This document shows positions 3,723-57,170 of a stretch of 64,000 nt of DNA, in pieces (within the stretch, counting starts at the first letter, position 1; each line of letters begins with the position of its first letter). Origin of the DNA: Parapedobacter sp. 2B3 (lineage in GTDB: Bacteria > Bacteroidota > Bacteroidia > Sphingobacteriales > Sphingobacteriaceae). The position numbers were made by a program, and so were the translations under genes. The notes beneath the pieces are model-generated. The model made no database searches and was not told where the DNA came from. It was given only the letters and a program-made list of their open reading frames with translations. Location of the stretch: contig NZ_JBHEUZ010000014.1 in the NCBI RefSeq assembly GCF_041925275.1, forward strand, positions 1 to 64,000, in the 5' to 3' direction.

Positions 3723-5129
3723 TTACATATGGATGGCACGGTTATCTGTCGCAGCGAGCGATGCCTCGCGGAAAGCCTCCGTATAGGTGGGATGGGCATG
3801 GCAGATGCGGGCAATATCTTCGGCAGAGGCCCGGTATTCCATCGCCAGGGTGGCTTCGGCAATCATATCTGCGGCGCGGGGGCCGATCATATGTACGCCC
3901 AGCACTTCATCGGTGCTGGCGTCGGCTAGCACCTTTACGAAGCCATCCGTATCGCCGCTGGCTTTGGCACGGCCGCTGGCTTTGAAAGGGAATGACCCTG
4001 TTTTATAGGCGCGGCCGTCGGCTTTCAGTTGCTCTTCGGTTTTGCCTACGCTGGCTACTTCAGGCCAGGTGTATACAACGCCCGGAATGAGGTTGTAGTC
4101 GATGTGGGGCTGTTGGCCCGCAAGGCGCTCGGCTACGTATACCCCTTCGTCTTCGGCCTTATGGGCCAGCATGGCTCCCTTCACCACATCACCGATTGCA
4201 TATACTCCGGGTACGGATGTTTCAAGGTGTTCGTTTACGGGTATCTTCTTACCCCGTTCTTCCAGCGTGATGCCGATGTTTTCCAACCCCAACCCTTCGG
4301 TATAGGCTGTGCGGCCTACGGCAACGATGCAGTAGTCGCCTTCCCATGTAACGGCTTCGCCCTTTGCATTTTCCGCATTGACGGTTACCTTCTTCCCTTT
4401 GGCGGTGGCTCCGGTTACCTTGTGGCCCAAGTAGAACTCCATGCCAAGCGATTTCTTCAATATGCGCTGCAATTCCTTACCTAGTCCGCCATCCATGGTC
4501 GGGATGATGTTTTTCTCGTACTCCACCACAGACACCTTAGCGCCCAAACGTGCGTACACGGAACCCAGTTCGAGCCCGATGACCCCGCCCCCGATGATAA
4601 TCAGGTGTTTTGGTACCTCGGTCAGTGTCAGTGCCTCCGTAGAAGTGATGATCCGTTTTTTATCGATAGGGAGGAAAGGAAGGGCGGTGGGTTTGGACCC
4701 CGAAGCGATGACGATGTTCTTGCCAGTGATCTGCTCGGCCTTTCCTTCGGCCCCGGCTATTTTCACCGTATTTTTATCGACAAACGAGCCGATGCCCACG
4801 AAGCTGTCAATTTTATTCTTCTTGAACAGGAACGCGATCCCGGCAACGTTTTGCGTGATGACTTCATCTTTCCTGGCGATCATCTGCTTCATGTCTACCG
4901 CAAGGTTGCTAAGGTTGATACCATGCGCACCGAACTGGTGGGCAGCGTTATGGTAATGTTCGGAGGAGTCTAGCAACGCCTTTGAAGGGATGCATCCCAC
5001 GTTCAGGCAGGTGCCTCCAAACGTACTGTATTTCTCGATGATAGCCGTTTTCAAACCCAATTGTGCGCAACGGATGGCGGCTACGTATCCGCCGGGCCCG
5101 CTACCGATTATAATGACGTCGTACTGCAT
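3723..5129 (-). CDS. lpdA: Dihydrolipoyl dehydrogenase, paralog 2
   Basis: 468 aa; 'MQYDVIIIGSGPGGYVAAIRCAQLGLKTAIIEKYSTFGGTCLNVGCIPSKALL'; about 50% identical to paralog 1 by eye. Confidence 0.9.
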   Translation of the reverse strand: MQYDVIIIGSGPGGYVAAIRCAQLGLKTAIIEKYSTFGGTCLNVGCIPSKALLDSSEHYHNAAHQFGAHGINLSNLAVDMKQMIARKDEVITQNVAGIAFLFKKNKIDSFVGIGSFVDKNTVKIAGAEGKAEQITGKNIVIASGSKPTALPFLPIDKKRIITSTEALTLTEVPKHLIIIGGGVIGLELGSVYARLGAKVSVVEYEKNIIPTMDGGLGKELQRILKKSLGMEFYLGHKVTGATAKGKKVTVNAENAKGEAVTWEGDYCIVAVGRTAYTEGLGLENIGITLEERGKKIPVNEHLETSVPGVYAIGDVVKGAMLAHKAEDEGVYVAERLAGQQPHIDYNLIPGVVYTWPEVASVGKTEEQLKADGRAYKTGSFPFKASGRAKASGDTDGFVKVLADASTDEVLGVHMIGPRAADMIAEATLAMEYRASAEDIARICHAHPTYTEAFREASLAATDNRAIHM

Positions 5130-5194: not shown

Positions 5195-5232
5195 CAAAAA
5201 AAGACAGCCGGTTGACTGTCTTCTTTTTTATT
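5195..5232 (-). terminator. Intrinsic terminator downstream of the cupredoxin gene (stem agacag/ctgtct flanked by A- and T-runs, potentially bidirectional)
   Basis: aaaaaaagacagccggttgactgtcttctttttt read in sequence. Confidence 0.5.
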
Positions 5233-5248: not shown

Positions 5249-5782
5249 TTACTCAGCGACAATCTTTCCCTGCATCACACCGTAGTGGCCAGGGAAACTG
5301 CAGACAAATGGATAGACGCCTTTGCTATCCAGGGTAAACTCAATCACATCCGTTTCGCCCGGTCCCAACAATTTAGTGTGGGCAATGATAGACGATGCAA
5401 ACGTTGCCGGGATGTATTCGGTATCAACCGCTTTGATGGCCTCACCACCGAAAGCCGGTAAATCCGTTCCCGGTTGCAATACAACAACGTTGTGCCCCAT
5501 GGACTCCTTGGGCATTTCGCCCACATTCTTGAATGTCAATTTCACGGTCTCACCCGCTTTAACCCGGAAGAGCGTTTTGTCATACTGCATCAAATCAGTA
5601 CCTTCCAGTGCAATCTCGTTGCTTACAGCCACATCCGCCAAACCGGGGATGTCTACAGCTGGTGCTTCCTGCTCGGTAGCCGTCTCCGTAGCTTCAGTCG
5701 ATCCTTCACTTGTTTGGTTGCCTCCGCAAGCAGCGGCAAGAACTGCACCCGCAACCACGGGGATTAAAAAAAACTGTTTCAT
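5249..5782 (-). CDS. Cupredoxin (plastocyanin/azurin-family blue copper protein), lipoprotein
   Basis: Signal + 'AAACGG' lipobox; C-terminal 'YPFVCSFPGHYGVMQGKIV' = Cys-x2-His-x4-Met type-1 copper ligands. Confidence 0.7.
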   Translation of the reverse strand: MKQFFLIPVVAGAVLAAACGGNQTSEGSTEATETATEQEAPAVDIPGLADVAVSNEIALEGTDLMQYDKTLFRVKAGETVKLTFKNVGEMPKESMGHNVVVLQPGTDLPAFGGEAIKAVDTEYIPATFASSIIAHTKLLGPGETDVIEFTLDSKGVYPFVCSFPGHYGVMQGKIVAE

Positions 5783-5919: not shown

Positions 5920-7533
5920 TTACGCATCCGTTTTGTCTTTAGCTTCGGTGAGCGTTTTGATCAACTGGTAAAGTGAAACGGGATCGAAAGGTTTTCCGAC
6001 CACGGCGTCGGCCCCCGCTGCATAGGCAGCTTGCTGTTCGCGTTGCAGCACCGACGCGGAAATGGAGATGATAGGGATCTGCCGGATGTGCGCACGGCTA
6101 TCGCTCCGAATGGTACGGATAGCTTCGAAGCCGCTCATAACGGGCATGTGCGCATCCATGAGTATCAAGCTATAGGATGTGTCTTCCACTTTGTCCAATG
6201 CCTCTTTCCCGTTCTTCACGGCATCTACCGCAATCCCCCATGTCTTCAGCATGTGGGTTACCATGAAGCTATTCAGTTCATTGTCTTCGGCAAGGAGTAC
6301 ATTGACATTGTTGAGCACCGGTAGGTCTGTGTATTGCTTCTTGTCCGATTTTGGTGCCGAATCGGAATCGGCCTCATCAAACCAACACTGGAATACAAAT
6401 TCACTGCCCTTGCCCAACTCGCTGTACGCGTGGATTTGCCCTTGGTGGAGGATGACCAACCGTTTCACAATGGCCAGTCCGAGCCCCGTGCCACCGAAGC
6501 GTTTGGTGATGCCTTCTTCGCCTTGCTCGAACGATTGGAAGATTTTGTCGATGGCATTGCTGTTTATACCGATACCGGTATCTTTCACCGAAAACTGGAT
6601 ATGGATGCGCTGTTGGGTACGGTTGAGCAATTTGGTTTCCAACACCACGCTGCCCTGCTCCGTAAATTTGATGCCGTTTGAAATGAGGTTGCTCAATATC
6701 TGCGTAAGCCGCAGCGAATCGGCCAGGATGTGCTTGGGTAGCTTGCTGTCATTGATTGCTTGGAAGGTGATGCCTTTCTGTTCGGCTTTGTAGCTAAATA
6801 GGTTGGTAAGCTCTTCAATGATGTTGGGTAACGATGTCCGTGAATAGTCCAGCCTCATTTTTCCCGAATCGATCTTTGAAAGATCGAGGATGTCGTTGAT
6901 GATGAGCAACAGCTGCTGCGATGCGTTTTCCAGGTAATCCAGCCATTCCGACTGCTGGTCATTGAGGGGCGAGTTGCGCAGCATGGTGGTAATCCCCGTT
7001 ATCCCATTGATGGGGGTACGGATTTCGTGGCTCATGTTGGCGAGGAAGTTCTCTTTTGACTTGCGTGCCTGGTCTGCCTCTTTTTTGGCTTTGACCAGCT
7101 CGATGTGCGAGCGCTCGAGCTCTTCGTTTTTACGTTTCAGCTCTCGCTGGATATATACCTGCTGCATGAACGATTTTACCTTGGCTACCGTGATATCCGA
7201 GTTGAGCGGTTTATAAAGGTAGTCTACGGCACCACTGTGGAGCCCCTTGAGCAGGAATTTGTCTTCTTTAGATATGGCCGTAACCATGATCACCATGATT
7301 TGCCATGTTTTCGGATTGCTTTGAAGCAATGAAACAAACTCGAAACCATTGATTTCGGGCATCTGCACATCTACCATGGCGATAGCGATGTCGTTGTTCC
7401 AGCAATAACGGAGGGCCTCGTTGGGGGAGGTACTCCCCCATATATCCAGGTTCTCTATATCCGCCAGCAATGCCTTCAGGCTGAGTACATTCTCTTCTTT
7501 GTCGTCTACGATGACTAACTTCAGTTTCTCCAT
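5920..7533 (-). CDS. Soluble hybrid histidine kinase, REC-HisKA-HATPase-REC
   Basis: N-terminal 'LVIVDDKEENV...MVDVQMPEINGFEF' receiver; H-box 'ANMSHEIRTPING'; G-box 'DTGIGI...GGTGLGLAIVKRLV'; C-terminal receiver 'VLLAEDNELNSF...LMDAHMPVMSGFEA'. Confidence 0.85.
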   Translation of the reverse strand: MEKLKLVIVDDKEENVLSLKALLADIENLDIWGSTSPNEALRYCWNNDIAIAMVDVQMPEINGFEFVSLLQSNPKTWQIMVIMVTAISKEDKFLLKGLHSGAVDYLYKPLNSDITVAKVKSFMQQVYIQRELKRKNEELERSHIELVKAKKEADQARKSKENFLANMSHEIRTPINGITGITTMLRNSPLNDQQSEWLDYLENASQQLLLIINDILDLSKIDSGKMRLDYSRTSLPNIIEELTNLFSYKAEQKGITFQAINDSKLPKHILADSLRLTQILSNLISNGIKFTEQGSVVLETKLLNRTQQRIHIQFSVKDTGIGINSNAIDKIFQSFEQGEEGITKRFGGTGLGLAIVKRLVILHQGQIHAYSELGKGSEFVFQCWFDEADSDSAPKSDKKQYTDLPVLNNVNVLLAEDNELNSFMVTHMLKTWGIAVDAVKNGKEALDKVEDTSYSLILMDAHMPVMSGFEAIRTIRSDSRAHIRQIPIISISASVLQREQQAAYAAGADAVVGKPFDPVSLYQLIKTLTEAKDKTDA

Positions 7534-7535
7534 GG

Positions 7536-8150
7536 TTAATTCCTAAAAATATGGTTGCTCAGCCCTTGGCTGAGGATGATGAGTTCGCCGTTGGTGAGGG
7601 TCAAGTCCACCGCGCCTTTCCTGATAGCCGCGGCAGGCATGGTTTCCACTTCGGCATCGCGCGGATGCTGCACGATGCATAGTCCATCCACCTTGCGGAC
7701 GGACTCCATGCCCTCGGCACCGTCTTGGTTGGCACCCGACAGCAGGATGGCTACGGTGGATGCGCCGTAGACGTCTGCGGCGCTCTGCATGGTCACATCG
7801 ATCGATGGTCTGCAGAAATGCACCGGCTCGGAGGTGTCCAGTGATAGGCTTCGATCGGGTTCTACCAACAAGTGGTACCCGGCGGGAGCAAAATAGGCCG
7901 TAGCGGGCCGGATGGGCTCTTTGTCTTCCGCTACTTTCACCACTATACGGCATTTGGCAGCAAGGTTCGCTTCGAGATGGGTTTCGTAGTTGGCATTCCG
8001 GTGGATCACCACTAAGACGCCAACGGGGAGGTTTGCTGGCAATGCTTTAAGCATCGTTAAAAGCATTCTGAACCCACCGGCCGAACACCCCAGCACGAGC
8101 ACCCCGGTATGTCGGAGCTTATTGGCGATATATGGGTTTGACTCAAGCAA
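7536..8150 (-). CDS. cheB: CheB-type protein-glutamate methylesterase/glutaminase, catalytic domain only (no receiver)
   Basis: 204 aa; 'VLVLGCSAGG...VIHRN...GANQDG' consistent with the Ser-His-Asp methylesterase fold. Confidence 0.75.
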   Translation of the reverse strand: MLESNPYIANKLRHTGVLVLGCSAGGFRMLLTMLKALPANLPVGVLVVIHRNANYETHLEANLAAKCRIVVKVAEDKEPIRPATAYFAPAGYHLLVEPDRSLSLDTSEPVHFCRPSIDVTMQSAADVYGASTVAILLSGANQDGAEGMESVRKVDGLCIVQHPRDAEVETMPAAAIRKGAVDLTLTNGELIILSQGLSNHIFRN

Positions 8151-8955
8151 TTTTCTGATAGATATTATGTGTTTTGCTGATTACCCTGAATTTGTGCCGC
8201 AGCCCGTTGGCAGGGAGCGTTTCCCTGGCCCCCAAGCATAAGAAACCGAATAGCGCGAGGCTGGCATAGAGGAGATTAACCACCTTATGTTGCAGATCCG
8301 CCGTGAAATAAATGAGCACATTACGGCAGGTAATCAATTGGAATTCATTGAAAACGCCATCGGAAACCAAATTGTGTGTGGAAAATAAGATATTCTTCCG
8401 CAATTCGTGATGGACAATGGCGGAGTCGTACATCGCCGTGTAATACTCGGATAGCGAATCGCCCGAATCTGTTTGCAGGTAATTGTCGGAATAGACTTTC
8501 ATTTTTTTCAGGTCAATGATGCCCTGTTTTGCACGTTCAAGGACCGCTGTATTGACGTCGGTGCCATAGATGAATGTGCGGCTGTATAATCCTTCTTTAC
8601 TAAGAAGTATGGCGAGGGAGTAGACCTCTTCGCCCGTAGCGCAACCGGCACTCCATACCTTGATGTGGGGAAAGGTGGCGAGGTAAGGATGTATTTCTTC
8701 GCGCAGGGTCTTGTAAAATGCCGGATCGCGGAACATTTCCGTCACATTTACCGTTACTTCAACGAGAAACTCGTTGAAAAAGCCGGGCGAATTTACCAGA
8801 CTGTCTTTCAGTCCTGCGAAATCGATTTGATAAATCGTTAGGATACGGGATACGCGGCGTTTGAGGGACGCGCGTGAGTAGCCGCTCAAATCGAAGCCAT
8901 GGACGTTGTTGACCAACGTGATCAGCTCTTCCAGATTTCCGAACGATACCACCAT
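8143..8955 (-). CDS. cheR: CheR-type protein-glutamate O-methyltransferase
   Basis: 270 aa; 'TEMFRDP', 'VWSAGCATGEEVYSLAILL', 'CRNVLIYF' CheR SAM-MTase motifs; overlaps cheB by 8 nt. Confidence 0.85.
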   Translation of the reverse strand: MVVSFGNLEELITLVNNVHGFDLSGYSRASLKRRVSRILTIYQIDFAGLKDSLVNSPGFFNEFLVEVTVNVTEMFRDPAFYKTLREEIHPYLATFPHIKVWSAGCATGEEVYSLAILLSKEGLYSRTFIYGTDVNTAVLERAKQGIIDLKKMKVYSDNYLQTDSGDSLSEYYTAMYDSAIVHHELRKNILFSTHNLVSDGVFNEFQLITCRNVLIYFTADLQHKVVNLLYASLALFGFLCLGARETLPANGLRHKFRVISKTHNIYQKIA

Positions 8956-8965
8956 TCCCTATCGC

Positions 8966-11900
8966 TTAACTTAACCACACCCGTAATAAGGAGAGTAACT
9001 TATTGACGTCAACTGGCTTAGCGATGTAATCGCTCGCGCCAACATCAAGTACATGTTGCCGATCTCCTTGCATGGCCTTGGCCGTAACCGCGATGATGGG
9101 CAACTCCACGAATCTTTTGTCCTCCCGGATTCTCGTAATCGCCTCATAACCGTCCATTTCGGGCATCATGATATCCATCAAAACCAAATCGACGCTGGGG
9201 TTGTTTTGTAACGCGTCCAGTGCCTCCCGCCCGTTATTGGCTGTTTCAATGGTCAGTTTGTATGGGGCAAATACCGAGCTCAATGCAAAAATATTCCGCA
9301 TATCGTCATCCACTAGCAAGATATGCTTGCCGTTGAGTACATCGTCCATGTGGATGGTTTCCGATTCGTCCCGAACCGATTGGACCCGGCTGGGAACGGA
9401 TTTGTCGTCATTAAGCCTGTTGATGAATAGGTGAACCTCGTCAAGAATACGGCGATTGGACTTGTCTGATTTCAATACCATGGTTTGGGTATGTTGCAAG
9501 ATACGGCTCACTATTTCGGTGGTGAGTTCCATCGCCGTATTGATGATCACGGGTATGTCTGCATATAGGGGGATCTGCTTAATCTGGTCGAGCAGGTCGA
9601 CCCCCGATATATCGGGCAAGACAATGTCCAGCACGATGCAGTCGTAACGTTCCTCCGATTCCAGGAAGTCCAGCGCTTCGGTACCGGTAAATGCCTGCCT
9701 TACGTCTACCCCGCCATCCAAGAGGAATGCTTTCAGGTTTTCACTTTGGATTTCGTGGTCTTCCACAACCAATACTTTCTTCAGTGGCGATGCGGTGATT
9801 TTGTGCAGGTGGGCGAACACCTCGTCGAGCGATTTCCTATCGATGGGTTTTTTTAAGAATCCCACCGCTTCGGCTTCCATACCGCTCTCTTTGGATTGGC
9901 CGGCCGACATGAGGTGCACAGGGATGTGTTGGGTTGCCGGATTGTTTTTTAATTTCTTGAGCACAGTCCATCCGTCGACGACAGGTAGCATGATGTCGAG
10001 GATGATGGCATCGGGCAGCAAATCGATGGCCATCTGCAGTCCGGTATCCCCTTGGCGGGCGAGCAGCGCGTCAAACCCTTGGTCCTTGGCATAGGTGGTC
10101 AGGATGTCGGCAAAATACGGGTCGTCTTCTACGATCAGCAAGCGCTTTGGCCAGGCAGGTTCCTGTACCCCTCGCTGCGGGAGCGCCCCCTGCACTACCG
10201 GCATATGGGGCTGGTTGTCCGGCTTATCCGGCAGGGGCTCGGTATAAGCCGCGGTCGCGTCTATTTCGGGCCCGTTTCGCAGCGGGAGGAACAAGGTAAA
10301 GGTGCTGCCTTTGCCCACTCCACTAGCCACGTGGATGTGACCCCCAAGGAGCGTTGCAAGTTCCCTGCAAATGGACAATCCCAGGCCGGTGCCGCCAAAT
10401 TGACGGCTCGTGGAACCATCTGCCTGCTTGAAGGCTTCGAAAATCAGTTGCTGCTTTTTTTGGGCGATGCCCACACCGGTGTCTGATACGGCGATCGCGA
10501 TGGCTTGGTCTGCCGTTATCCCTCCCGCCAATTCGCCATCCCAGCCGGGCGCTTCGCCCGCCGGTGTAAACTGCAACTCCACCCGGCCCTTTTCTTTCGT
10601 GAATTTGAATGCGTTGGAGAGCAGGTTCCTAAGTATTTGCCGTAGGCGCTGTTCATCTGTGGCGATGCGCGCAGGTAGTCCCTCGTTCACCGTGATACGG
10701 AACTCGATCGCTTTACTGTCTGCGACACTGCTGAAAAGGTCAAGCATATCTTCGGCGATGGACGACAAGGTGATGTCTTCCCACAACAGCTCAACATTGC
10801 CCGATTCGATTTTCGATAAATCGAGTATGTTGTTGATCAGGTCGAGCAGGTCTGAACCCGCGTTATGGATAACGGATACATATTTTACTTGTTCGGGCAG
10901 TAAGTTACCTGTTTTGTTGTCTTCAAGCAATTTCGCGAGGATAAGTATGCTGTTGAGCGGAGTGCGCAATTCGTGGCTCATATTGGCCAGAAATTCCGAT
11001 TTATATCTGCCCGATTGTTCCAGTTCGCCCACTTTCAATGCAATGGATTGGCGGGCTAGCTCGATGGAAATATTGCGTTCTTCCAGTAACCTTGCTTTTT
11101 CTTCGAGTGCTAGGTTAGCGTGTTTAAGTTCTTCCTGCTGCACCCGCAATTCTTCCTGCTGAGCCTCCAATTCTTCTGCCTGTTGCTGCGTTTCTTCATA
11201 GAGGAGGGTAAGCGTTGTATGTGCCTGCGCTACTTTACTGGCCACGGCCAAAGAAATGCCTGCCCGTTGCAGGAATTGGAGGGTTTCTTTGTCGACCTCA
11301 CGGAAAAAGCCGATCTCCATTACGCCGAGCACTTCCTCTTCGTAAACCAGGGGTTGAATGACAATGTTTTTCGGCTCGGTTTTTCCCAAAGAGGATGTGA
11401 TGGTGAGGTAATTTTCGGGTATATGCGATAATACAAGTTGTTTTTTGGCAGAAATACTCTCGCCCGCCAATCCCTGGCCATCCATGATCTTAGGAGGAAT
11501 GTTTTTTGTCTCAACGGCATACGACCCCGCATGGACATATACTTCTTCCCGGGAAAAGCTTTTGAGGTAAATCATTCCGACCTTTGCTTGTACATGTTGG
11601 CAAACCGTCCGGATCGCATTGGTGGCTATTTCTTTTTCGCTACGCCCACCACGCGTATGGTTATCCAGGGCAGCCAAGCCGCTGAGTATCCAATTGTCTA
11701 CCTCTTTTGTTTTCGATAGTTTATTGAGGTCACGGTTGGATTTGCGGATGCGGTAGGCGATTTCCTTGTAGTGTTCAAAGGTTTTTGTGATATAAACCAA
11801 CAGCCACACAATGAGCGCAAAGACCAATACCGAGGTGACAATGAAGGTGGTCCGGATACTGGCAAGTGTGGTATCGGCCACCTCTACCTGGTTGAAGAGC

Positions 11901-11995
11901 AAGGTGAGGTAGCGTAAACTAACAAGCAGGATCGCGATCAGGAGTGAGAAGCCTAGATAGATGTGTACCCTGAAGGTTAGTCGTTTCATAATCAA
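8966..11995 (-). CDS. Membrane-anchored GAF-domain hybrid sensor histidine kinase with three C-terminal receiver domains
   Basis: 1009 aa; two N-terminal TM helices; GAF-like region about aa 110-250; Q/E-rich coiled coil aa 265-330; H-box 'ANMSHELRTPLNS'; HATPase 'DTGVGI...GGTGLGLSICREL'; three D-x-x-P receivers ('LLIVEDDP', 'VLVVEDHE', 'ILLVDDDM'). Confidence 0.85.
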   Translation of the reverse strand: MIMKRLTFRVHIYLGFSLLIAILLVSLRYLTLLFNQVEVADTTLASIRTTFIVTSVLVFALIVWLLVYITKTFEHYKEIAYRIRKSNRDLNKLSKTKEVDNWILSGLAALDNHTRGGRSEKEIATNAIRTVCQHVQAKVGMIYLKSFSREEVYVHAGSYAVETKNIPPKIMDGQGLAGESISAKKQLVLSHIPENYLTITSSLGKTEPKNIVIQPLVYEEEVLGVMEIGFFREVDKETLQFLQRAGISLAVASKVAQAHTTLTLLYEETQQQAEELEAQQEELRVQQEELKHANLALEEKARLLEERNISIELARQSIALKVGELEQSGRYKSEFLANMSHELRTPLNSILILAKLLEDNKTGNLLPEQVKYVSVIHNAGSDLLDLINNILDLSKIESGNVELLWEDITLSSIAEDMLDLFSSVADSKAIEFRITVNEGLPARIATDEQRLRQILRNLLSNAFKFTKEKGRVELQFTPAGEAPGWDGELAGGITADQAIAIAVSDTGVGIAQKKQQLIFEAFKQADGSTSRQFGGTGLGLSICRELATLLGGHIHVASGVGKGSTFTLFLPLRNGPEIDATAAYTEPLPDKPDNQPHMPVVQGALPQRGVQEPAWPKRLLIVEDDPYFADILTTYAKDQGFDALLARQGDTGLQMAIDLLPDAIILDIMLPVVDGWTVLKKLKNNPATQHIPVHLMSAGQSKESGMEAEAVGFLKKPIDRKSLDEVFAHLHKITASPLKKVLVVEDHEIQSENLKAFLLDGGVDVRQAFTGTEALDFLESEERYDCIVLDIVLPDISGVDLLDQIKQIPLYADIPVIINTAMELTTEIVSRILQHTQTMVLKSDKSNRRILDEVHLFINRLNDDKSVPSRVQSVRDESETIHMDDVLNGKHILLVDDDMRNIFALSSVFAPYKLTIETANNGREALDALQNNPSVDLVLMDIMMPEMDGYEAITRIREDKRFVELPIIAVTAKAMQGDRQHVLDVGASDYIAKPVDVNKLLSLLRVWLS

Positions 11996-12075
11996 CTTGC
12001 TTTACCCCGATTCCTGCAAAAGTACGAAAAGTCAAGATATGAATCACACGCTTGTTACAAGTTCGAATCGGAAGG

Positions 12076-13302
12076 TCAAAGTATCGGATGCCTTTCGAAT
12101 GGCTTGGTAGGGTCAAATAAGTAGCGGTAGGTGTGGTGCGTTTTATAGATGGTGCCGCCGATATACCGGGCTACGTTCATCATTTTAGGGTTGAAATCGC
12201 CAATCCAATTCATCTGTATCTCTTCATACCGTACTTGCGAGGGATCTTGTACCACCTTTGTTGCGGCTACTACCAACGCGGCCTCCACTCCCTTCCGCTG
12301 GTGGTCTGGCACCACGCCGAATACGATGCCGAACATGGTCCTGCAGCGTTTGCGCCATCGGTTCCAGACGAACAGCAGTTTGCCCCACAGGGTCAGTCTT
12401 CCATCCATGTATTTGACGATGAGCTGATTTACGTCCGGTATATTCACCCAGAAAGCCACGGGTTGGCCGCGGTAGTAAGCAAACCATATGATTTTCGGGT
12501 CGACAATGGGTTTCATGCTTTGCATGAGCTTGCGGGCGTTTCCCACACTCATAGGGCCCACACCCTCGTGCCTCGCCCAGGCCTCGTTGTATACCGTACA
12601 GAAATCTTCGGCTGCTTTATCAAGTCTGTCGGCCCGTATATGGCTGAAGGTATAGCCGGCGTCTTGGAGCGTATTCATCGCTTTCTCGCTGACCTTGCTA
12701 GATAGCTTGGCGGCGATTTCGCGGCGGTAGGTGAATTGCTTGAAATAGACTTGGAAGCCGTATCGTTCGAATAATCGCTGGTAATAGGGCGGGTTGTAGT
12801 TGCAGCAATAGCACGGCGGATGGAAACCGTCTACAAGAAGGCCCCACCAGCGTTCGCGGTTGCCGAAATTGATTGGCCCGTCCATCGCCTGTATGCCTTT
12901 TTCCTGCAGCCATTCCTTTGCGGCATTGAAAAGTAGGTCGGCGGCCTGTTGATTGTCCACGCATTCGAAAAAACCACAGCCGCCGACGGGAAATTCGTCC
13001 CCCTCGAACGTACTGTTATTATAGAATGCCGCGATACGGCCGATGAAGCGGCCGTTGCCGTCGCGGAGCAGCCACCGGGCGCAATGGCCCGTGCGATGGC
13101 GCGGATTGGCGTCCGGATCGAATACCCGGTGCACGTCGTTATCAAACGGACGGATGTAATGTGGATCATCGCTGTACAACGTGGGCGCCATCGTTACGAA
13201 CGCCCGGGCCAGTTGCTCTCCGGTAACGGGTATGATTTCCATAGCTGCTGTCGAATCGATTCTGTCGGTGCTAAAAATAGCGGTTTGTTCCCGCTTCTCC
13301 AA
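12076..13302 (-). CDS. Putative GNAT-fold / FemAB-like acyltransferase (uncharacterised family)
   Basis: 408 aa; C-terminal 'VFGVVPDHQRKGVEAALVV' resembles GNAT motif A (R/Q-x-x-G-x-G/A); start could be the internal Met at 13242. Confidence 0.35.
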   Translation of the reverse strand: MEKREQTAIFSTDRIDSTAAMEIIPVTGEQLARAFVTMAPTLYSDDPHYIRPFDNDVHRVFDPDANPRHRTGHCARWLLRDGNGRFIGRIAAFYNNSTFEGDEFPVGGCGFFECVDNQQAADLLFNAAKEWLQEKGIQAMDGPINFGNRERWWGLLVDGFHPPCYCCNYNPPYYQRLFERYGFQVYFKQFTYRREIAAKLSSKVSEKAMNTLQDAGYTFSHIRADRLDKAAEDFCTVYNEAWARHEGVGPMSVGNARKLMQSMKPIVDPKIIWFAYYRGQPVAFWVNIPDVNQLIVKYMDGRLTLWGKLLFVWNRWRKRCRTMFGIVFGVVPDHQRKGVEAALVVAATKVVQDPSQVRYEEIQMNWIGDFNPKMMNVARYIGGTIYKTHHTYRYLFDPTKPFERHPIL

Positions 13303-24340: not shown

Positions 24341-25117
24341 TCATCCTTTTTTCAGCTGTTGTATAAACGGCGCTATCTTCGCGTGGTAATCCGCGTTGCC
24401 CAGCAGTTTCACGAAAGCACTACCTACAATGGCGCCATCGGCGTGGTCGGTAGCATGTACGAACGTGTCGTGGTTGGAGATGCCAAATCCGATGACCGTC
24501 GGATTTTCGAGATCCATGGCCGCGATGCGGGAAAAGTAGCTTTCCGTATTTTCCGAAACCGCCAGGTTCTTGCCGGTAGTAGCCGACGAAGACAACAGGT
24601 ATATAAATCCGGTGGATAGGCCGTCAATTTTCCGGATCCGTTCTTCGGATGTCTGTGGTGTAACGAGGAAGATGTTGCTCAACCCATGGGTGTTAAATAC
24701 CGATCGGTAATGCGTTTCATACTCATACATGGGTAGGTCGGGTACAATGGCTCCGTCTACGCCAACAGATTGGCATGCTTTGCAGAAATCCTCCACGCCG
24801 TACTGCAGCACCGGATTCACGTATCCCATCAGCAATACGGGAATGCTGACCCGCTTGCGTAAATCTTTCAGTTGATCGAAAAGTACGTCCAATGTCATGC
24901 CGTTGCGCAGTGCAACTTCTGAGCTGTGCTGGATAACCGGTCCGTCGGCTACCGGGTCGGAATAGGGGAAACCGATTTCGAGGAAATCGGCACCTGCGTT
25001 TTCCAATGCTTCGGCGATGTCCAATGTGCTATCGAGCGTCGGGTAACCGGCGGTAAAATAAATGGAGAGGACGCGCCTGTCGCCTTTTTCGGCGAACAAA
25101 TTCTTGATGCGGTTCAT
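24341..25117 (-). CDS. trpA: Tryptophan synthase alpha subunit
   Basis: 'LSIYFTAGYP...ADFLEIGFPYSDPVADGPVIQ' canonical TrpA. Confidence 0.9.
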   Translation of the reverse strand: MNRIKNLFAEKGDRRVLSIYFTAGYPTLDSTLDIAEALENAGADFLEIGFPYSDPVADGPVIQHSSEVALRNGMTLDVLFDQLKDLRKRVSIPVLLMGYVNPVLQYGVEDFCKACQSVGVDGAIVPDLPMYEYETHYRSVFNTHGLSNIFLVTPQTSEERIRKIDGLSTGFIYLLSSSATTGKNLAVSENTESYFSRIAAMDLENPTVIGFGISNHDTFVHATDHADGAIVGSAFVKLLGNADYHAKIAPFIQQLKKG

Positions 25118-25120
25118 TGT

Positions 25121-26305
25121 TTAAAATCCAAAGTACTTCATGTAGTTGTCTAAATCCTTGTCGCCACGACCCGATAGGCATACCACCACGTTCTCGTTGG
25201 CTGCGAACGTCATTTTCTCCAGCTGGGCTAGCGCATGGGCGCTTTCGATGGCGGGGATGATGCCTTCCAGTCGGGTAAGCAGCAAGCCGGCCTGCATGGC
25301 CTCGTCGTCCGTGGCATTGACATAGGTTGCCCGGCCCGTTTTGTACAGCCAGGCATGCTGCGGTCCGATACCGGGGTAGTCGAGCCCGGCCGAGATGGAA
25401 TATGGCTCCACCACCTGGCCGTCATCGGTCTGCATCAGGATCGATCGACTGCCATGCAGTACGCCTTCGCGGCCGAGCACCGTAGTTGCAGCCGATTCGC
25501 CCGAGTCGACGCCTTTGCCAGCGGCTTCCACTGCCACGAGTTTCACCTGCGGGTCGTCTATGAAATGGTAAAACATGCCCGCGGCATTGCTGCCACCGCC
25601 TACGCACGCCAGGACGTAGTGCGGTGTTTCGCGACCTGTCTTTTCGAACAATTGCTTACGGGTTTCGGCAGAGATGATCGATTGGAAGCGGGCCACCATG
25701 TCCGGGTAGGGGTGGGGCCCCACCACCGAGCCGATGATATAGTGAGTATCCACGGGGTTGTTTATCCAGTCGCGCAGCGCCTCATTGGTGGCGTCTTTGA
25801 GCGTTTTGCTGCCCGACGTGGCCGCCACGACCTCGGCGCCCATCATTTTCATGCGTGCCACGTTGGGGGCCTGCCGCTCGATATCGATGGCACCCATGTA
25901 TACCACGCATTGCAGACCCTTGAGCGCACATACCGTAGCGGTGGCCACGCCGTGTTGGCCCGCGCCCGTTTCGGCAATGATGCGTTTCTTGCCCAGCCGC
26001 TCCGCGAGCAGGATCTGGCCGATCGTGTTATTGATCTTATGGGCACCGGTATGGTTGAGGTCTTCCCGTTTCAGGAAGATGTTGGCGCCGTATCGGTCAG
26101 AAAGCCGCTCCGCAGGGTACAGGGGCGACGGCCGGCCGACGTAATCGCGCAGCAATTGGCCAAATTCCCGTTGGAAATCATCGCTTTGGATGATGCTCAG
26201 GTATTGCTGCTGCAGTTCCTCCACATTGGGGTATAGCATTTCGGGGATATAGGCGCCGCCGAAATCGCCGTAATAGCCATTGTCGTTTACTTGGTATTTA
26301 CTCAT
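25121..26305 (-). CDS. trpB: Tryptophan synthase beta subunit
   Basis: 'GRPSPLY...HTGAHKINN' PLP-lysine motif; 394 aa. Confidence 0.95.
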
Positions 26306-26924
26306 CGTTGATGGTCTGTAACGTGTTTCTCAATAATGCAATGTCTTTGACGCCCGGTGCGGTCTCGAACCGTGAGTTCAGGTCCAACGCGTAGAGGCGG
26401 CTGTCGTCAAGCCGCAGTGCGTCTGCTATGTTTTCAGCACCGATGCCGCCACTCAGGAAAAAAGGCGTGTTGCCCGTATAGCCGGCAAGCAGCGTCCAGT
26501 CAAAACGTTTGCCGGTGCCGCCGTGTTGGGTGCTTTGTGTGTCGAAAAGGAAGTAATCCACGATCGTTTCATATCCCCTTACTATTGTCCAGTCGAATCG
26601 CTCATTGATGCCGAAGGCCTTGATGATTTCTACGCCGCAATCTGCCAGTGTTGCGCAGTATGCCGGAGCCTCAGCCCCATGCAACTGCACGGCTTGGAAA
26701 CCGTATCGCTGGATGGCTGTTTTCACTTCATGGATGGCCGCATCTACAAAAATACCTGTTTTTTTGGTGCCATGCAACCCCATTACCCAATCGGCATCAA
26801 GCTGGTCGATAAAACGCCTGGAGCCGGGGTAAAAAATGAGGCCGATGTAATCCGGTTGCAAGGCGATAACCTCCCGGATGTTATCGGGTTGTTTTAAGCC
26901 ACATATTTTTATTTTTGGATTCAT
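26298..26924 (-). CDS. trpF: Phosphoribosylanthranilate isomerase
   Basis: '[16 protein letters not shown]...[13 protein letters not shown]'; 8-nt overlap with trpB. Confidence 0.85.
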
Positions 26925-27013
26925 TTGATCGTGCACGCAGAGTTCGCTAAGTTCTTCGCAAAGCACGCGAAGGGACTTTTTTAGACCCCACGTCTTTGCG
27001 CGAAATGAAAGAA

Positions 27014-28003
27014 TTAACCATCTATTAATTTTTTAAAACTTTCTAGAGCCTTCTTGCCCAGCAATGATGCTTCGGCTTCGTAGTAGCAGTCGCCAAAACT
27101 CTTTTCCGGATGGATGGTCTGTATGGCAACGGCTGCGTTGGCAAGGACCACATTGTTTTGTTCCGACGTGCCTTCGCCATGGAGTACCGTCGCGAAAATA
27201 CGGGCCGCCTCCTCCACGGTTTCCCCACCGTGGATACGATCTGCCGATATGGGTGTAAAGCCCAGCTGCTCGATGCTGTGGATATGTTCCCCTTCATTGC
27301 TGATGGTCTTGAAATCGCCTGTCAGGGACACTTCGTCGTACCCGTCCAGCGCGTGGAGGATGGTGTATCGCTTGTCCGTTTGTTGGTACAGGTAGCCATA
27401 GAGCCGCGCCAATTCCAGGCTGAATACCCCGACGGATTGGTAGTGGGGGTTGGTGGGGTTTACCAACGGGCCGATCATGTTGAAAAAGGTCTTTACACCC
27501 AGTTCGCGGCGGATGGGCGCTACCGTTTTCATGGCCGGATGGAAAAGCGGCGCATGGAGGAAGCAGATGTTTGCTTGCTCCAATTGGCGGCTGATGGTTT
27601 CCTTGTCATTGGTGAACCGGTAACCGAGGTATTCCATCACGTTTGACGACCCGCAGCCGGATGACACGCCATAATTGCCGTGTTTGGCTACGGGGTAGGC
27701 TGCTCCAGCCACTACGAAGGAGGCGAGGGTGGAAATGTTGAAGGTGTTTTTGCCATCACCCCCCGTACCGCAGAGGTCGATGAGTTTATAACCCGGAAAC
27801 TCCAATTGGAGGCACAGGTCGTACATTGCATCGCGGAAACCTTCCAGCTCTTCCACGCGGATGCTCCGCATGCCATAGGCCGTCATGAATGCGGCGATTT
27901 GGGAGTTGTTGTATTTCCCCGAAGCGATGTTAGTCAATATCTCATATGCTTCACGCTGCGTGAAGGTTTTGTATTCGAAGAGGTGCGTTAATATTTTTTT
28001 CAT
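27014..28003 (-). CDS. trpD: Anthranilate phosphoribosyltransferase
   Basis: 'IDLCGTGGDGKNTFNIST' glycine-rich PRPP loop; 329 aa. Confidence 0.9.
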   Translation of the reverse strand: MKKILTHLFEYKTFTQREAYEILTNIASGKYNNSQIAAFMTAYGMRSIRVEELEGFRDAMYDLCLQLEFPGYKLIDLCGTGGDGKNTFNISTLASFVVAGAAYPVAKHGNYGVSSGCGSSNVMEYLGYRFTNDKETISRQLEQANICFLHAPLFHPAMKTVAPIRRELGVKTFFNMIGPLVNPTNPHYQSVGVFSLELARLYGYLYQQTDKRYTILHALDGYDEVSLTGDFKTISNEGEHIHSIEQLGFTPISADRIHGGETVEEAARIFATVLHGEGTSEQNNVVLANAAVAIQTIHPEKSFGDCYYEAEASLLGKKALESFKKLIDG

Positions 28004-33874: not shown

Positions 33875-36800
33875 TTAAAGGTCAACCGTTGTTTTGTGCT
33901 GTTTAAGGTAGGCCGATGGGGTAAGTCCGAACTGCTGCTGGAAACTCCTGCGGAAATGTTTCAGGTCGTTAAAGCCGGTCTCGTAAGCGGCTTGCGTAAT
34001 ATTGAATTTTCCCGATTTCAGCAATACAGCACTCCGCTTCAAGCGGATCAGTTTGATGAATTCAGAACCGGATAAACCTGTAATGGTTTTTAATTTCCTG
34101 TAAAATGTGGATCGGCTCATATTCGCTATTTCCGCCAACACATCGGTGTTGAAATCCGGTGTAGCCAAGTGTTCCTCGGTATAGGAAACGATCCGCTTAA
34201 TGAAATCTGATTCAAATGTACCGAGATCGGTCTGGTCCTGATCCAGGTTGATGTGGCGGGCGAACTGATCCCGCAACTGTTGCCGGAGTGCTATTAAATT
34301 CTTTACATAAGATTTGAGAACCTGGGGGTTGAATGGTTTTGTCAGGTATACATCCGCGCCTTTGCTGATACCTTCAACGTATGCCTCGTCATCCGGCCGG
34401 GCGGTAAGTAATATGATGGGGATATGGGACGTTCGTTGATCATCCCTTAATTGTTGGCATAGGCTGAACCCGTCCCGCGATGGCATCATGATATCGCTGA
34501 TAACCAGGTCGGGAATGGTACTGAACGCCATTTCCAGACCATGCTGGCCGTCAGTAGCCTGAATGACGTTATAAAACGCACCAATAATGGAAGCCATATA
34601 ATCCCTGATTTCGGAATTGTCTTCCACGATTAAGACCAGGGGAAGGTCTTTTGTCAGCGTGTCGGCTTTTCGGCCGTTTTTTTTGCTATTTGTGTTGCTT
34701 GCAGCAGTGGCATCAACCGGATTATCTGCCGAAAACAAGATGTCCGCCCCTGCAGCGGGCAGGCTTATGTTGAACGTGCTGCCTGCACCCGGCAAGCTAT
34801 CGACGGTTATTCGGCCCCCGTGCATGCCCACCAACTCGCGGACAAACGCCAGTCCAATGCCCGTACCTGCCGTTTTATTGGGATGTCCTTTTTCGGCTTG
34901 ATAAAAGCGCTCGAATATCCTTTGGTGATCTTCCTCCCGGATACCGCTGCCGCTATCCGCCACACCGATCTCGCAAGAGGCATCATCTGTCGTTGCATTT
35001 GCCAGGCTTGCTGACAAGGTGATACGGCCACCGTCAGGCGTAAACTTAAACGCGTTGGAAAGCAGGTTGTACAGTACAATTTCGATTTTTTCCTTATCGA
35101 ATGAAAAGTATAGCTGCGTGGGGCAGTCCACTGAAAAACGGATATTCCTGCGTTCGGCTTCATCGGCAAATGAGTCAGCGACATACTTAGCGATTGACGT
35201 CAGGTCATGCGTGTTGACGTGGAGCGCAAGGCTACTGGCTTCCGCTTTCTGGAAGGCCAGCAATTGGTTCACGAGATGCAGCAGGCGCCTGGTATGGTTC
35301 AGCACGCGGCTTAGCGTGCCCCTCGTCCCGCCATCCAATTGGGATGCCGCTGACAGTTCGGACAGCGGCCCCATCATGAGTGTCAATGGTGTGCGGAATT
35401 CATGCGACACGTTAGTAAATAGCTTTGACCGTACCTGCGCAACTTCATGCTCCCGTTGGTAATTTAAGTTTGCGATTTCAAGTTTGTTGCGCAGTTTGAT
35501 CCTGCTGATACCGATATGGCGGGACAACCAAAGAAACGCAATCAGCAACGCTACATAAATGCTATAAGCCCACCAAGTCTTCCAGGGTGGAGGTAAGATC
35601 CGGATCGCTATGGACGTGCCTTCTTCGTTCCATACCTTGTCGCTGTTTGAAGCCATCACCGTGAACCGGTAATTGCCCGGCGGTAAATTGGTGTAGGTGA
35701 CCTGCCGTTGGTCACCGGCATATACCCAATCTTGGTCAAATCCCGATAACTTATAAGCATACTGATTTTTATCCGGTGCATGGTAGTCCAACGCTGCAAA
35801 CATAAGGGCTACAATGTTTTGTTTATAAGATAACGTAATGGTACGGGTGGCGAAGGGGGCATTGGATAACACTACGCGGCCAGCGATGGTATCGCCCACA
35901 GTGACATCTTCATTGTTCACGGCAAGGCCTGTAATGTATACTTGGGGAACTCGTTTGTTCATTGTAATGCTATCCGGGAAGAAAGACGTAATGCCCTTGA
36001 TGCTGCCGAAGTATAGTTCTCCCCGGCTGGAAATGAAGGAGCTGTTTTCGGAAAAGACATTGCTGATTAGACCATCCCTGGTATCGAAATGCTGGAATTC
36101 GCCTTTTTTTGTATCGTATTTGACGATGCCGTTATTTGTACTCATCCAGATGTTGCCGTGCCTGTCCGGCCGTATGGCATGAACGTAATCATTCGGGAAT
36201 CCATTTTGGGCAAAGTGATTCTCAAAGGTGTATTTGCCGGATTCATCTTCAATTAATTTATTGAAACCGTGTTGCGTGCCGATCCAAATACCCCCGCTTT
36301 GGTCTTCTGTGATGCACAGGACGGTATTGTTAGTCAGGCAGGCAGGCAGGTTGTTTTGCTGGCGGTAAACGATGAATCGGTCGCGGTCGTGGTCATAAAG
36401 GTGTAAGCCGTTGTAGGTGCCCATCCATAATCGTCCCTTCGAGTCAGACAGCATACAGCTTATGCGCTCGTTCTGTAGTGCGCCGTCTTTTCCGGGCTGG
36501 GCAGAATACCGCCTGAAGCGGGGTCTGCCACTATCGGTGAAGCCGATCACTTTGTTGAGCCCCGACTCCTGTGTACCCACCCAGACGGTGCCCCGCCGGT
36601 CGCGGGTTATTGAATTTATTTTCGGTCCGCTCAGGCTTTCCGGATCTCCCCTGTCGGATGTTACCGTGCGTTGGTTTCCCCCATAACGTTTGCCTTTGAT
36701 AATGACGATTCCCCGATTGGTATACATCCATAAGTCCCCGCCATATTCGAAAAAACCCCGCACCGAATTGACACCCGCAGGAGTGGGTATTTTCCTCAAG

Positions 36801-52280: not shown

Positions 52281-53840
52281 CTATTTCCAGGCATCGTGTT
52301 GTATCAACGCCTTGTTGGCATCCAGTTCGCTGAGCGGAATAGGAAACGTTTCCGAGCGCTTGTTTTGGTATCGCGGATTGTAACCATTCAGGTTGTCGGC
52401 GACCATGCGTTCGTAAGCCTCGCTTACTATTCCCCAGCGTATCAGGTCGAAGAACCGCAGCCCTTCAAAAGCGAATTCCACGCGGCGTTCGTGCCGTATG
52501 ATGTCCCGTAGTTGCGGTTGTGACAGCCCCGTGCCCTCTGCTTCCTGTACGGTGGGCATACCTACTCCTGGCCGTTGCCGTACCTGGTTGATGAGCGAAT
52601 ACACCTCGTCACCGATCTGGTTATCTTCGATCAGCGCTTCTGCCCGCATAAGCAACACGTCTGCATAACGCAATATGTAAAAATCCTGGCCCCCGTTTCC
52701 AGCAGGGCCAATGCCCGCATCCGATGTCCTCGTGCGTATGTATTTTTTTAGGCCATAACCGGTTACATTATTGCCATTAAAGGCGTTTCCTACATCAGTA
52801 ATATAGATATCACCTTTAAACCATACGCTCGCGAGCAGCCTCGGATCCCGATTTTCTTTTGGATTACTGGGATTGTACAGATCGGAAACCGTAATTGGCT
52901 TGCCATCCGTACAATAAAAATCAGCCACGAGATTGGGCAGGGGCTGTTTATCGACCTTTGGCTGTCCAACATAGGTAGACGAGAACGTTTCGTTGGCTGA
53001 GAAGCCCGGGGTTTCTACGAATCGTACGGAGAAAACCACATCTTTGGAATTTTCTCCGTCTTCCGTAAATTGCACATCGTAGGGCAGACTCAAATCATAT
53101 TGCCCAAGCGCAATGACATCTTGCGCCGCGGCGGCGGCTTTTTTCCAATCCTGATCGAGAAGGTACACTCGGGCAAGCAAGCCGTATGCAGCACCTTTGG
53201 TGGCGTGTCCGTACCTATCCGCGGATTGTGTGGTCGGAAGAAGGTCGGCAGCTTGTTGAAGATCAGCGATGATTTGGTCTAGCACCTGCCGTTTGGGTGT
53301 TTTTGCCACCTGTGCTGTTTCCAGTGTTTGGGGTTCAGTGATTAGCGGCACGTCTTCATAATAGGTAACGAGATTTAAATAGAATAAAGCCCTTAAAAAA
53401 AGCGATTGTCCCATGAAGTTGTCCTTTGCTGCCGTGCTGATCTGGTCTTCGGTCATCTTGGGGAGGTTTGTGATTGCTTGGTTACTTCTCACAATGCCCC
53501 GGTAATTGGCCAGCCAGAAATTCTCGAACATCCCAGTTGTTGAGGCAGACACGTTTCCCTCCACGTAATTCCCCGGGCCTTCATATTTCCATAAGTTAAA
53601 GGAATTGTCGGTAAAACTGTCGTACATCGGGATGCCGGCATCGCCGTTGAGGTTGCCGCTGTAAAGCTGACGCGTTTGCAGTACGTCGTAAATGCCATTT
53701 ATTGCAAGCAAAGCATCCTTTTCATTTTGCCAGAAGTTGTCGGCGGCCAACTGGGTCAGCGAGTGTCGGTCCAAAAAGCCTTCCGAACATCCTATAAACG
53801 TTAAGGGGAGGGCAATGATGATTGTTAATATTCTTTTCAT
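52281..53840 (-). CDS. RagB/SusD-family nutrient-binding outer membrane lipoprotein
   Basis: 519 aa; lipobox 'FIGCSE'; TPR-like helical SusD architecture; located immediately downstream of SusC. Confidence 0.85.
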   Translation of the reverse strand: MKRILTIIIALPLTFIGCSEGFLDRHSLTQLAADNFWQNEKDALLAINGIYDVLQTRQLYSGNLNGDAGIPMYDSFTDNSFNLWKYEGPGNYVEGNVSASTTGMFENFWLANYRGIVRSNQAITNLPKMTEDQISTAAKDNFMGQSLFLRALFYLNLVTYYEDVPLITEPQTLETAQVAKTPKRQVLDQIIADLQQAADLLPTTQSADRYGHATKGAAYGLLARVYLLDQDWKKAAAAAQDVIALGQYDLSLPYDVQFTEDGENSKDVVFSVRFVETPGFSANETFSSTYVGQPKVDKQPLPNLVADFYCTDGKPITVSDLYNPSNPKENRDPRLLASVWFKGDIYITDVGNAFNGNNVTGYGLKKYIRTRTSDAGIGPAGNGGQDFYILRYADVLLMRAEALIEDNQIGDEVYSLINQVRQRPGVGMPTVQEAEGTGLSQPQLRDIIRHERRVEFAFEGLRFFDLIRWGIVSEAYERMVADNLNGYNPRYQNKRSETFPIPLSELDANKALIQHDAWK

Positions 53841-53859
53841 GATGGTGTTTTCTTTTTAT

Positions 53860-56967: not shown

Positions 56968-57170
56968 AAGTATATAGATTAATTGGTTATTATATGTGGA
57001 CAAAGGTAGGAATCGACGTAAAATCGAGAGGGGACAAGGAAGTCAATTATAGGGGACGTCGATTCAAATCGATCCGTATGAATGCGATGTGCGCATAAAA
57101 GCTAATAGGAAAGGACCTCAGCATAATTTAAGAGGTGCCTTTCTATCCGTTAAAGAGTAAAGTAGCGGAA

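Follow-up and report, generated by a model that had tools for sequence, protein, structure and literature searches.

What do a CheR-type methyltransferase and a CheB-type methylesterase modify when their genes lie between two hybrid histidine kinases instead of beside a chemoreceptor? The question is raised by a 64,000-nucleotide stretch of DNA from Parapedobacter sp. 2B3 (contig NZ_JBHEUZ010000014.1, positions 1 to 64,000), which was analysed as a whole and is referred to here as the window. An earlier reading of its letters, the original prediction, had named one of the two kinases as the likely methylation substrate, and this proposal is supported by the present analysis. On the evidence of sequence and of analogy with published systems, it is most probable that CheR and CheB serve the kinases rather than a chemoreceptor array, and that the large GAF kinase is their substrate. 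The assignment is made because the synteny of the genes is invariant, because methyl-accepting chemotaxis proteins (MCPs), CheW and CheA are missing from the window and from the surroundings of 86 related loci, because the large kinase carries a tract of Glu-Glu-Leu heptads on its signalling helix, and because methylation of the kinase RsbK by RsbM has been published for Bacillus cereus.

Open reading frames (ORFs) and Pfam domain assignments define a cassette of four tightly packed, co-directional genes, all on the minus strand, at positions 5920-11995:

8966-11995, minus strand: RsbK/CfcA-type GAF hybrid histidine kinase, 1009 amino acids (Pfam, orthologue alignment, AlphaFold2).
8143-8955, minus strand: CheR-type protein-glutamate O-methyltransferase, 270 amino acids, with CheR_N and an S-adenosylmethionine (SAM)-binding CheR domain (Pfam).
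7536-8150, minus strand: stand-alone, receiver-less CheB-type methylesterase/deamidase, 204 amino acids, with CheB_methylest only (Pfam).
5920-7533, minus strand: second kinase, a REC-HisKA-HATPase_c-REC hybrid response regulator/kinase, 537 amino acids (Pfam).

The number, packing and domain content of these genes are as originally described. Reading of the sequence also confirms two of the three spacings given for them, namely the overlap of 8 nucleotides between cheR and cheB (8143-8150, given a TTG start at 8150) and the start of the second kinase 2 nucleotides past the cheB stop codon; the gap between the large kinase and cheR, put at 8 nucleotides, is 10 (8956-8965). An ATG at 11989, two codons past the TTG, may be an alternative start of the 1009-residue kinase.

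A genome scan with a profile of receiver-less CheBs, restricted to one genome per species, yielded 80 loci from at least 8 phyla. These belong to Bacteroidota (several orders), Alpha-, Beta- and Gammaproteobacteria, Myxococcota, Desulfobacterota, Bdellovibrionota, Cyanobacteria, Planctomycetota, Verrucomicrobiota and Acidobacteriota. CheR is encoded directly upstream of CheB in 74 of the 80 loci, and the same strand encodes a GAF-kinase-REC protein at a distance of at most 8 kilobases (kb) in 64 of the 65 loci that have at least 5 kb of upstream sequence. A REC-first protein is found directly downstream of CheB in 58 of the 80 (48 of these 58 proteins are REC-kinases). Cytophagales and Chitinophagales have a permuted order (REC-kinase, GAF-kinase, single REC, CheR, CheB), and Sphingobacterium spiritivorum (locus L001) has the same four genes plus the same flanking genes. 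Chance adjacency of the cassette genes is rejected, as the gene order is repeated in 80 loci of many phyla.

The module is also carried by Rhizobium, Sphingopyxis and Agrobacterium plasmids. All four genes are annotated on the Sphingopyxis and Agrobacterium plasmids, the large hybrid kinase as a "response regulator", followed by CheR, CheB and a "hybrid sensor kinase". The kinase of the Rhizobium plasmid record carries no annotation and is seemingly split. A search with a related CheB matched 66 plasmid records, many of them conjugative, at E 1e-30 or better. A Pseudomonas copy was found neither in the plasmid collection nor among the 80 genome loci. The view that the architecture is sporadic in Bacteroidota is not borne out by a distribution that spans these phyla and extends to conjugative alphaproteobacterial plasmids.

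The sensors of the cassette kinases differ (CHASE3, as in locus L016, NIT plus HAMP, eight HAMPs, or dCache plus HAMP, by Pfam), and behind them stands a common core of GAF domain, long linker, kinase core and two to three receivers. This constant GAF-helix-kinase core behind swappable sensors is a detail not found in the literature on RsbK and on the Pseudomonas cfc/BmsA clusters.

Several single loci show further variation. On a Parachlamydiales metagenome contig (L099, 7001-14057), the cassette GAF kinase has a protoglobin sensor, and a REC-guanylate/adenylate cyclase, the apparent output, is followed by a cyclic nucleotide monophosphate (cNMP)-binding protein. In L097, a REC-GGDEF gene comes after CheR, and cassette outputs thus vary by lineage. 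On two Deinococcus plasmids (L087 and L094), CheR and a REC-kinase come after a poly-HAMP GAF kinase and CheB was not detected, a form with the methyltransferase alone that is reminiscent of B. cereus RsbK/RsbM. The kinase that precedes CheR in Parapedobacter koreensis (L011, 7617-9185) is only a histidine kinase (HK)-REC ORF of 523 amino acids (511 in the NCBI annotation), which is devoid of GAF domain and heptad tract and may be truncated or frameshifted.

The nearest solved structure to the window CheR is that of Bacillus subtilis CheR (PDB entry 5FTW, E 1e-31), and alignment to it shows that the SAM motif WSAGCxTGEE is kept. The window CheB aligns with CheB catalytic domains in the PDB and has the triad Ser23-His50-Asp143, all three residues being invariant across 40 members of the family. 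In the NCBI annotation, the protein has 188 amino acids and starts from a GTG at V17. The 204-residue form, starting from the TTG at 8150, is favored, given that homologues of 204-210 amino acids span all 204 residues. Pfam confirms that the protein has no receiver. This is the rule in the family, since the nearest 150 representatives (50% clustering) are nearly all receiver-less proteins of about 200 amino acids; the few longer members are tandem CheBs or fusions (CheB-REC-kinase, CheB-REC, CheR-CheB and CheB-CheR). The conclusion originally drawn from the missing receiver, that CheB is not under classical phospho-control, needs qualifying. CheB is usually translationally coupled to a downstream receiver-first gene, and is fused to that receiver in some organisms, so that phospho-control in trans is still conceivable. 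The regular pairing of CheB with a receiver-first kinase is likewise absent from the accounts of RsbK/RsbM and cfc/BmsA that we found.

As stated originally, the window encodes no recognizable MCP, CheW or CheA: none was found by Pfam in gene-like ORFs of at least 150 amino acids, and phmmer queries for the MCP signalling domain, CheW and CheA-Hpt gave 0 matches in window ORFs of at least 90 amino acids. With the same queries, none of the three was found within 10 kb in any of the 86 related loci. The queries are valid, in that Pfam confirms the three families and the MCP query recovered a real MCP in an unrelated locus (L090). These results bear on the possibility that the two enzymes perform ordinary chemotactic adaptation for chemoreceptors whose genes lie in another part of the genome, and that they are placed between two kinases by coincidence. 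Such a role would be in keeping with their catalytic domains, which are typical of CheR and CheB, and the genome was seen only as a 64-kb window. It is difficult to reconcile with the recurrence of this gene order at 80 loci of different phyla, none of which has MCP, CheW or CheA within 10 kb, or with the almost uniform lack of receivers among the nearest 150 CheB representatives. To our knowledge, moreover, the Sphingobacteriaceae are non-flagellated gliders that are generally without che clusters. The passage of PMC4951495 that cites Garcia-Fontana 2013 states that the cassette CheR and CheB of Pseudomonas putida have no role in chemotaxis. An assignment of the pair to distant chemoreceptors is thus highly improbable. 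Pseudomonas and Rhizobium possess both the cassette and chemotaxis, and an MCP cluster elsewhere in the genome would therefore not refute a kinase substrate.

The 1009-residue kinase comprises a GAF domain (residues 118-252), HisKA (332-399, including the phospho-accepting H341), HATPase_c (446-573) and receivers at about 617-730, about 739-860 and 892-1004 (Pfam). By inspection, its N-terminus contains two hydrophobic segments (residues ~11-33 and ~49-70) separated by a short loop; Pfam detects neither CHASE3 nor HAMP in the protein. NCBIfam holds no specific model for the kinase, and all kinase matches fall below their cut-offs. An AlphaFold2 model of residues 105-590 (mean predicted local distance difference test score, pLDDT, 87.3) contains one unbroken predicted helix, residues 236-359, which leads from the last GAF helix through the heptad tract into the His helix. 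The tract was delimited by its register to the H-box His and by conservation:

11078-11212, minus strand: signalling-helix segment, residues 262-306, YEETQQQAEELEAQQEELRVQQEELKHANLALEEKARLLEE, containing three Glu-Glu-Leu heptads.

The second Glu residues of the three heptads are E275, E282 and E289, which precede H341 by 66, 59 and 52 residues, respectively. Conservation of each of the three is 90% or higher across 50 cassette kinases and exceeds that of the first Glu in the pair. The linker consensus of the cassette kinases is LLEETQRQAEELQAQQEELRxxNEELEEQ...SEEELRVQQEELxQTNxELEEKAxLLEE. When these kinases are anchored on the phospho-accepting His (H), Leu occupies every seventh residue from H-86 to H-37 (75-100%) and Glu stands before each Leu at H-52, -59, -66, -73, -80, -87 and -94; conservation of this Glu is 93% at H-80 and H-52 and 87% at H-87. 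In the window tract, Gln adjoins Glu pairs (QQEEL).

A strict EEL....EEL pattern is present in 63 of 64 cassette kinases versus 5 of 566 other ORFs of at least 300 amino acids from the same loci. Four of the five exceptions are themselves cassette members, HK-REC or GAF ORFs in the upstream position, which were overlooked by the GAF plus HK filter owing to truncation at a contig end, lack of a GAF match or a split ORF; the fifth is the REC-kinase of L074. Within the window, the pattern occurs only in the 1009-residue kinase, and no comparable Glu-rich heptad tract is found in the second kinase or in the receivers. E275, E282 and E289 are proposed as the likely sites of modification by CheR and CheB, because the EEL heptads stand in register with the His, are specific to the kinase and are thinner in relatives without CheR/CheB. 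The placement of predicted second-Glu sites at fixed distances from the phospho-accepting His appears to be new, as it was not found in the RsbK and cfc/BmsA literature. RsbK is reported to be methylated at E439 and E446, which would lie at -66 and -59 from its H505 and so in the window register; no confirmation of these sites was found in PMC4574943, and they are not used as evidence.

The relation between tract and enzymes was assessed in a control sample seeded with the kinase, not with CheB, and composed of plasmid matches and database matches on long contigs. Six kinase relatives with CheR and/or CheB nearby (from two Deinococcus plasmids, with CheR only, and four metagenomic contigs) have 2-5 in-register EEL heptads. 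Twelve relatives without CheR/CheB (from Mesorhizobium, Rhizobium etli, Ensifer, Azospirillum, Sphingobium, Novosphingobium, Nonomuraea, Streptomyces, Planobispora and three metagenomic contigs) have 0-2, with the Glu often replaced by Arg, Lys, Ala or Gln. The Mann-Whitney p value for this difference is 0.001, in a comparison of 6 versus 12 that is small, contains several close relatives and is uncorrected for shared ancestry, which tempers its weight for the proposed sites. The depletion of EEL in relatives without CheR/CheB supports a tie between the tract and the two enzymes, without amounting to proof.

Heptads of this kind recur in CheB/CheR-fusion HWE kinases, which are annotated as "two-component system CheB/CheR fusion protein". 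Of 117 full-length relatives, 116 have at least 5 consecutive heptads immediately behind the CheR domain; the relatives are 50-95% identical and therefore represent few independent observations. The fusion-kinase heptads form runs of 5-7 consecutive [ED]E[LMI] units, for example EELETANEELKSSNEEMMSMNEELQSTNEEL. On a plasmid of Rhizobium sp. CC-CFT758 (L004, 11127-14535), a CheB/CheR-fusion PAS-HWE kinase with NEEL heptads adjoins the four-gene cassette, and this plasmid thus carries both architectures that join CheB and CheR to a kinase.

The Parapedobacter kinase departs from its relatives in two respects, as judged by alignment to orthologues from another Parapedobacter (63% identity), Sphingobacterium and Brevundimonas. 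It is without some 130-150 amino acids between the hydrophobic segments (residue 1-110 region), where the orthologues have a CHASE3-like sensor. Its signalling helix bears a clean deletion of 21 amino acids at residues 283-284, corresponding to exactly three heptads, which apparently arose by recombination between two QQEELR repeats. The deletion preserves the heptad register to the His, and the sites left are the three best-conserved ones, equivalent to H-87, H-80 and H-52 of the full-length form.

The reading that we favor, drawn from sequence and analogy and given a probability of 0.65, is that the second Glu in the EEL heptads of the kinase's signalling helix undergoes reversible modification by CheR and CheB, which would adjust kinase output or receiver docking. 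Phosphoryl groups would then move on to the receivers, the second kinase and an unlinked regulator. In such a scheme, the large kinase would autophosphorylate on H341, its output being set by the signalling helix that is predicted to continue from the GAF domain into the His-bearing helix. CheR would methylate, and CheB would demethylate or deamidate, E275, E282 and E289. Modification would alter helix packing and hence either kinase activity or docking of an inhibitory receiver, after the example of B. cereus RsbK/RsbM. The receivers, along with the one at the N-terminus of the second kinase, would take over the phosphoryl groups, and the second kinase would relay to an output regulator encoded elsewhere. 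Domain content, synteny, the heptad tract with its register, seemingly intact catalytic residues and the continuous helix of the model are observed; the choice of these glutamates as substrate, the sense in which modification shifts kinase activity, the path of phosphotransfer and the output in the cell are inferred. As CheR and CheB are both present, the modification should be reversible, which could provide set-point control or adaptation in the manner of a chemoreceptor but without MCP, CheW or CheA.

Several points weigh against this reading. The likeness of the window kinase to B. cereus RsbK and Pseudomonas CfcA is taken from published descriptions. In P. putida, cfc mutants other than cfcA stay crinkly (an unpublished remark in PMC4951495), and the role of CheR and CheB there is consequently unproven genetically. 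The losses of sensor and heptads may mean that the Parapedobacter copy is atypical or decaying. MCP methylation sites follow the consensus [ASTG][ASTG]xx[EQ][EQ]xx[ASTG][ASTG], which the tract does not fit. One or two EEL heptads are kept in relatives without CheR/CheB nearby (L088, L091 and L095), and the tract must therefore be in part a structural trait of the family.

The last two points would be expected if the EEL heptads were purely a structural coiled coil, with CheR and CheB modifying the second kinase, a receiver or a protein encoded elsewhere, and the fusion of CheB to a downstream REC or REC-kinase in some organisms shows that the enzyme is physically close to that downstream protein. 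A purely structural tract would not account for the absence of comparable Glu-rich heptads from those same candidates, the second kinase and the receivers, for the greater length and conservation of the tract where CheR/CheB are present, or for its recurrence directly after CheR in an unrelated fusion architecture. RsbM, furthermore, has been shown to methylate the RsbK signalling helix (S-helix) (PMC4574943). We consider a substrate other than the tract unlikely.

A different objection concerns reversibility. CheR could hold the kinase off constitutively, as a static brake with no adaptation loop, and CheB could act mainly as a one-off deamidase or a slow reset, without feedback tied to a stimulus. 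The B. cereus precedent is of this type, RsbM being a constant negative regulator that has no partner esterase (PMC4574943); the receiver-less CheB means that classical feedback from CheA to CheB is missing, and the Gln residues beside the Glu pairs (QQEEL) could be deamidation targets. A CheB with intact triad is nevertheless kept in nearly all cassettes, and its coupling or fusion to a receiver-first protein fits a regulated esterase, which makes a permanent brake rather improbable.

Reversible modification of the second Glu, as favored here, could also form part of an adaptation circuit that is complete without a receptor. In it, the receiver encoded just after cheB would be phosphorylated by the kinase and would in turn activate CheB in trans, with the second Glu as the memory site. 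This extension is tentative, and its chances are well short of even. If true, it would amount to a feedback like that from CheA to CheB, built on an ordinary two-component kinase, and the Parapedobacter copy, having lost its periplasmic sensor and exactly three heptads, would represent a minimal form arisen in nature, with sensing confined to its GAF domain or the membrane.

Two further features accompany the cassette, one on either side:

12017-12024, minus strand: TACTTTTG, candidate operon promoter, 28 nucleotides upstream of the ATG at 11989 (pattern match only).
5249-5782, minus strand: azurin/plastocyanin-family cupredoxin, 177 amino acids, 137 nucleotides downstream of the second kinase (Pfam; NCBIfam azurin match below cut-off).

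TACTTTTG fits TAnnTTTG, which we take to be the Bacteroidota -7 promoter consensus. A scan for sigma-70 promoters and terminators inside the operon gave counts equal to the shuffled expectation and was uninformative. The only strong terminator-like hairpin of the region, with a stem of 14 base pairs, follows the cupredoxin gene (5196-5227). The same cupredoxin neighbor is found in Sphingobacterium spiritivorum (L001, 12276-12809); it is a conserved neighbor within Sphingobacteriaceae, and its membership of the operon is uncertain. Just downstream on the minus strand lie two paralogous dihydrolipoamide-dehydrogenase-like flavoproteins (1316-2704 and 3723-5129), each with Pyr_redox_2 and a dimerisation domain, in a paired arrangement that also occurs in Sphingobacterium. 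About 80 nucleotides upstream of the large kinase, an ORF of 408 amino acids on the same strand (12076-13302) was rejected as a cassette member, having no Pfam or NCBIfam match. It probably lies outside the cassette, because Sphingobacterium has at that position a gene for 143 amino acids without family match.

The rest of the window consists of housekeeping genes and a sulfatase-rich polysaccharide utilisation locus. The latter (30505-57003) contains a SusC/SusD pair (52281-57003), five sulfatase genes, GH2-family glycosidases and a flavin adenine dinucleotide (FAD) oxidoreductase, as well as a hybrid two-component regulator (33875-37978) with a beta-propeller/Y_Y_Y sensor and AraC output. 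The tryptophan biosynthesis genes trpA, trpB, trpF and trpD stand in a row at 24341-28003 on the minus strand.

The closest biochemical precedent is the B. cereus system. RsbK has the architecture CHASE3-HAMP-GAF-S-helix-HK-CA-REC, and RsbM, encoded just downstream in the same operon, methylates its S-helix and, together with the receiver of RsbK, represses the kinase, with repression of sigma-B as the result (PMC4574943). The C-terminal receiver of RsbK is inhibitory and binds the S-helix region more strongly when RsbM is co-expressed (PMC4574943). The same paper, which refers to Chen 2012 and to de Been 2010 and 2011, cites 127 RsbK-like kinases in 10 phyla. The window cassette shares with RsbK/RsbM the order of GAF, signalling helix, HisKA, HATPase and REC as well as the CheR-type gene directly downstream, and its Glu heptads lie 52-66 residues before the phospho-accepting His within this RsbK-like core. 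Whereas RsbK has CHASE3, HAMP and one receiver, the window kinase has three receivers and no detectable extracytoplasmic sensor or HAMP. B. cereus has neither the cassette CheB nor the second kinase, both of which are present in the window. Its output runs by way of RsbY, a PP2C response regulator, and sigma-B. The window has neither, and no SpoIIE/PP2C, RsbV/RsbW or sigma-factor genes were found among its ORFs.

In gene content, the Pseudomonas clusters come closer. The cfcABCDE cluster of P. putida includes a CheR/CheB pair (CfcB/CfcC) and the receiver-carrying CfcD (PMC4951495), and activation of the diguanylate cyclase regulator CfcR depends on H496 of CfcA (PMC4951495, PMC6849547). In Pseudomonas brassicacearum, gene 3082, an orthologue of the Pseudomonas alkylphenolica biofilm and motility kinase BmsA, adjoins CheR, CheB and hybrid kinase genes in a cluster 3082-3079 (PMC8175716). 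The order in the cfc/BmsA clusters is that of the window, with a GAF hybrid kinase followed by CheR, CheB and a receiver-containing protein or hybrid kinase, and phosphotransfer proceeds from the conserved His of the first kinase. This kinase has a CHASE3 sensor that the window kinase does not have, and its known target CfcR (REC-GGDEF-EAL), which controls cyclic di-GMP and biofilm, is unlinked to the cfc cluster; Pfam detected neither GGDEF nor EAL domains in the 64 kb of the window. With RsbK/RsbM, cfcABCDE and BmsA all published, this type of cassette has already been described, and the original prediction that it is mechanistically uncharacterised does not hold: RsbK/RsbM has been studied by biochemistry and genetics, and the four-gene form corresponds to cfcABCDE (PMC4951495) and to the BmsA context (PMC8175716). 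For the cassette CheB and the second kinase, no biochemical role was found in the literature on these systems. As the concept is published, including a kinase as the methylation substrate, the value of the present analysis lies in the site prediction and in the questions it poses about CheB and the second kinase.

The CheB/CheR-fusion PAS-HWE kinases also tie CheB and CheR to a histidine kinase with no chemoreceptor, and have their heptads after CheR. They differ from the cassette in being a single polypeptide of the HWE type with PAS sensors and no GAF domain.

In the usual teaching, adaptation through methylation is tied to chemoreceptor arrays. The cassette places the adaptation enzymes of chemotaxis on a standard histidine kinase, and it is widely met with in bacteria associated with soil and plants, on conjugative plasmids and among non-flagellated Bacteroidota. 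With canonical chemotaxis it has in common the CheR and CheB families and paired Glu (or Gln) residues, repeated every heptad along an extended coiled coil through which a histidine kinase is controlled. It is the second member of each pair that is modified in MCPs, and the second Glu that is conserved in the window tract. The site context, xNEELxx, differs from the MCP consensus. Where the canonical system employs MCP, CheW, CheA and a REC-CheB, the window has a receiver-less CheB and a HisKA-type dimer that would bear the predicted sites itself.

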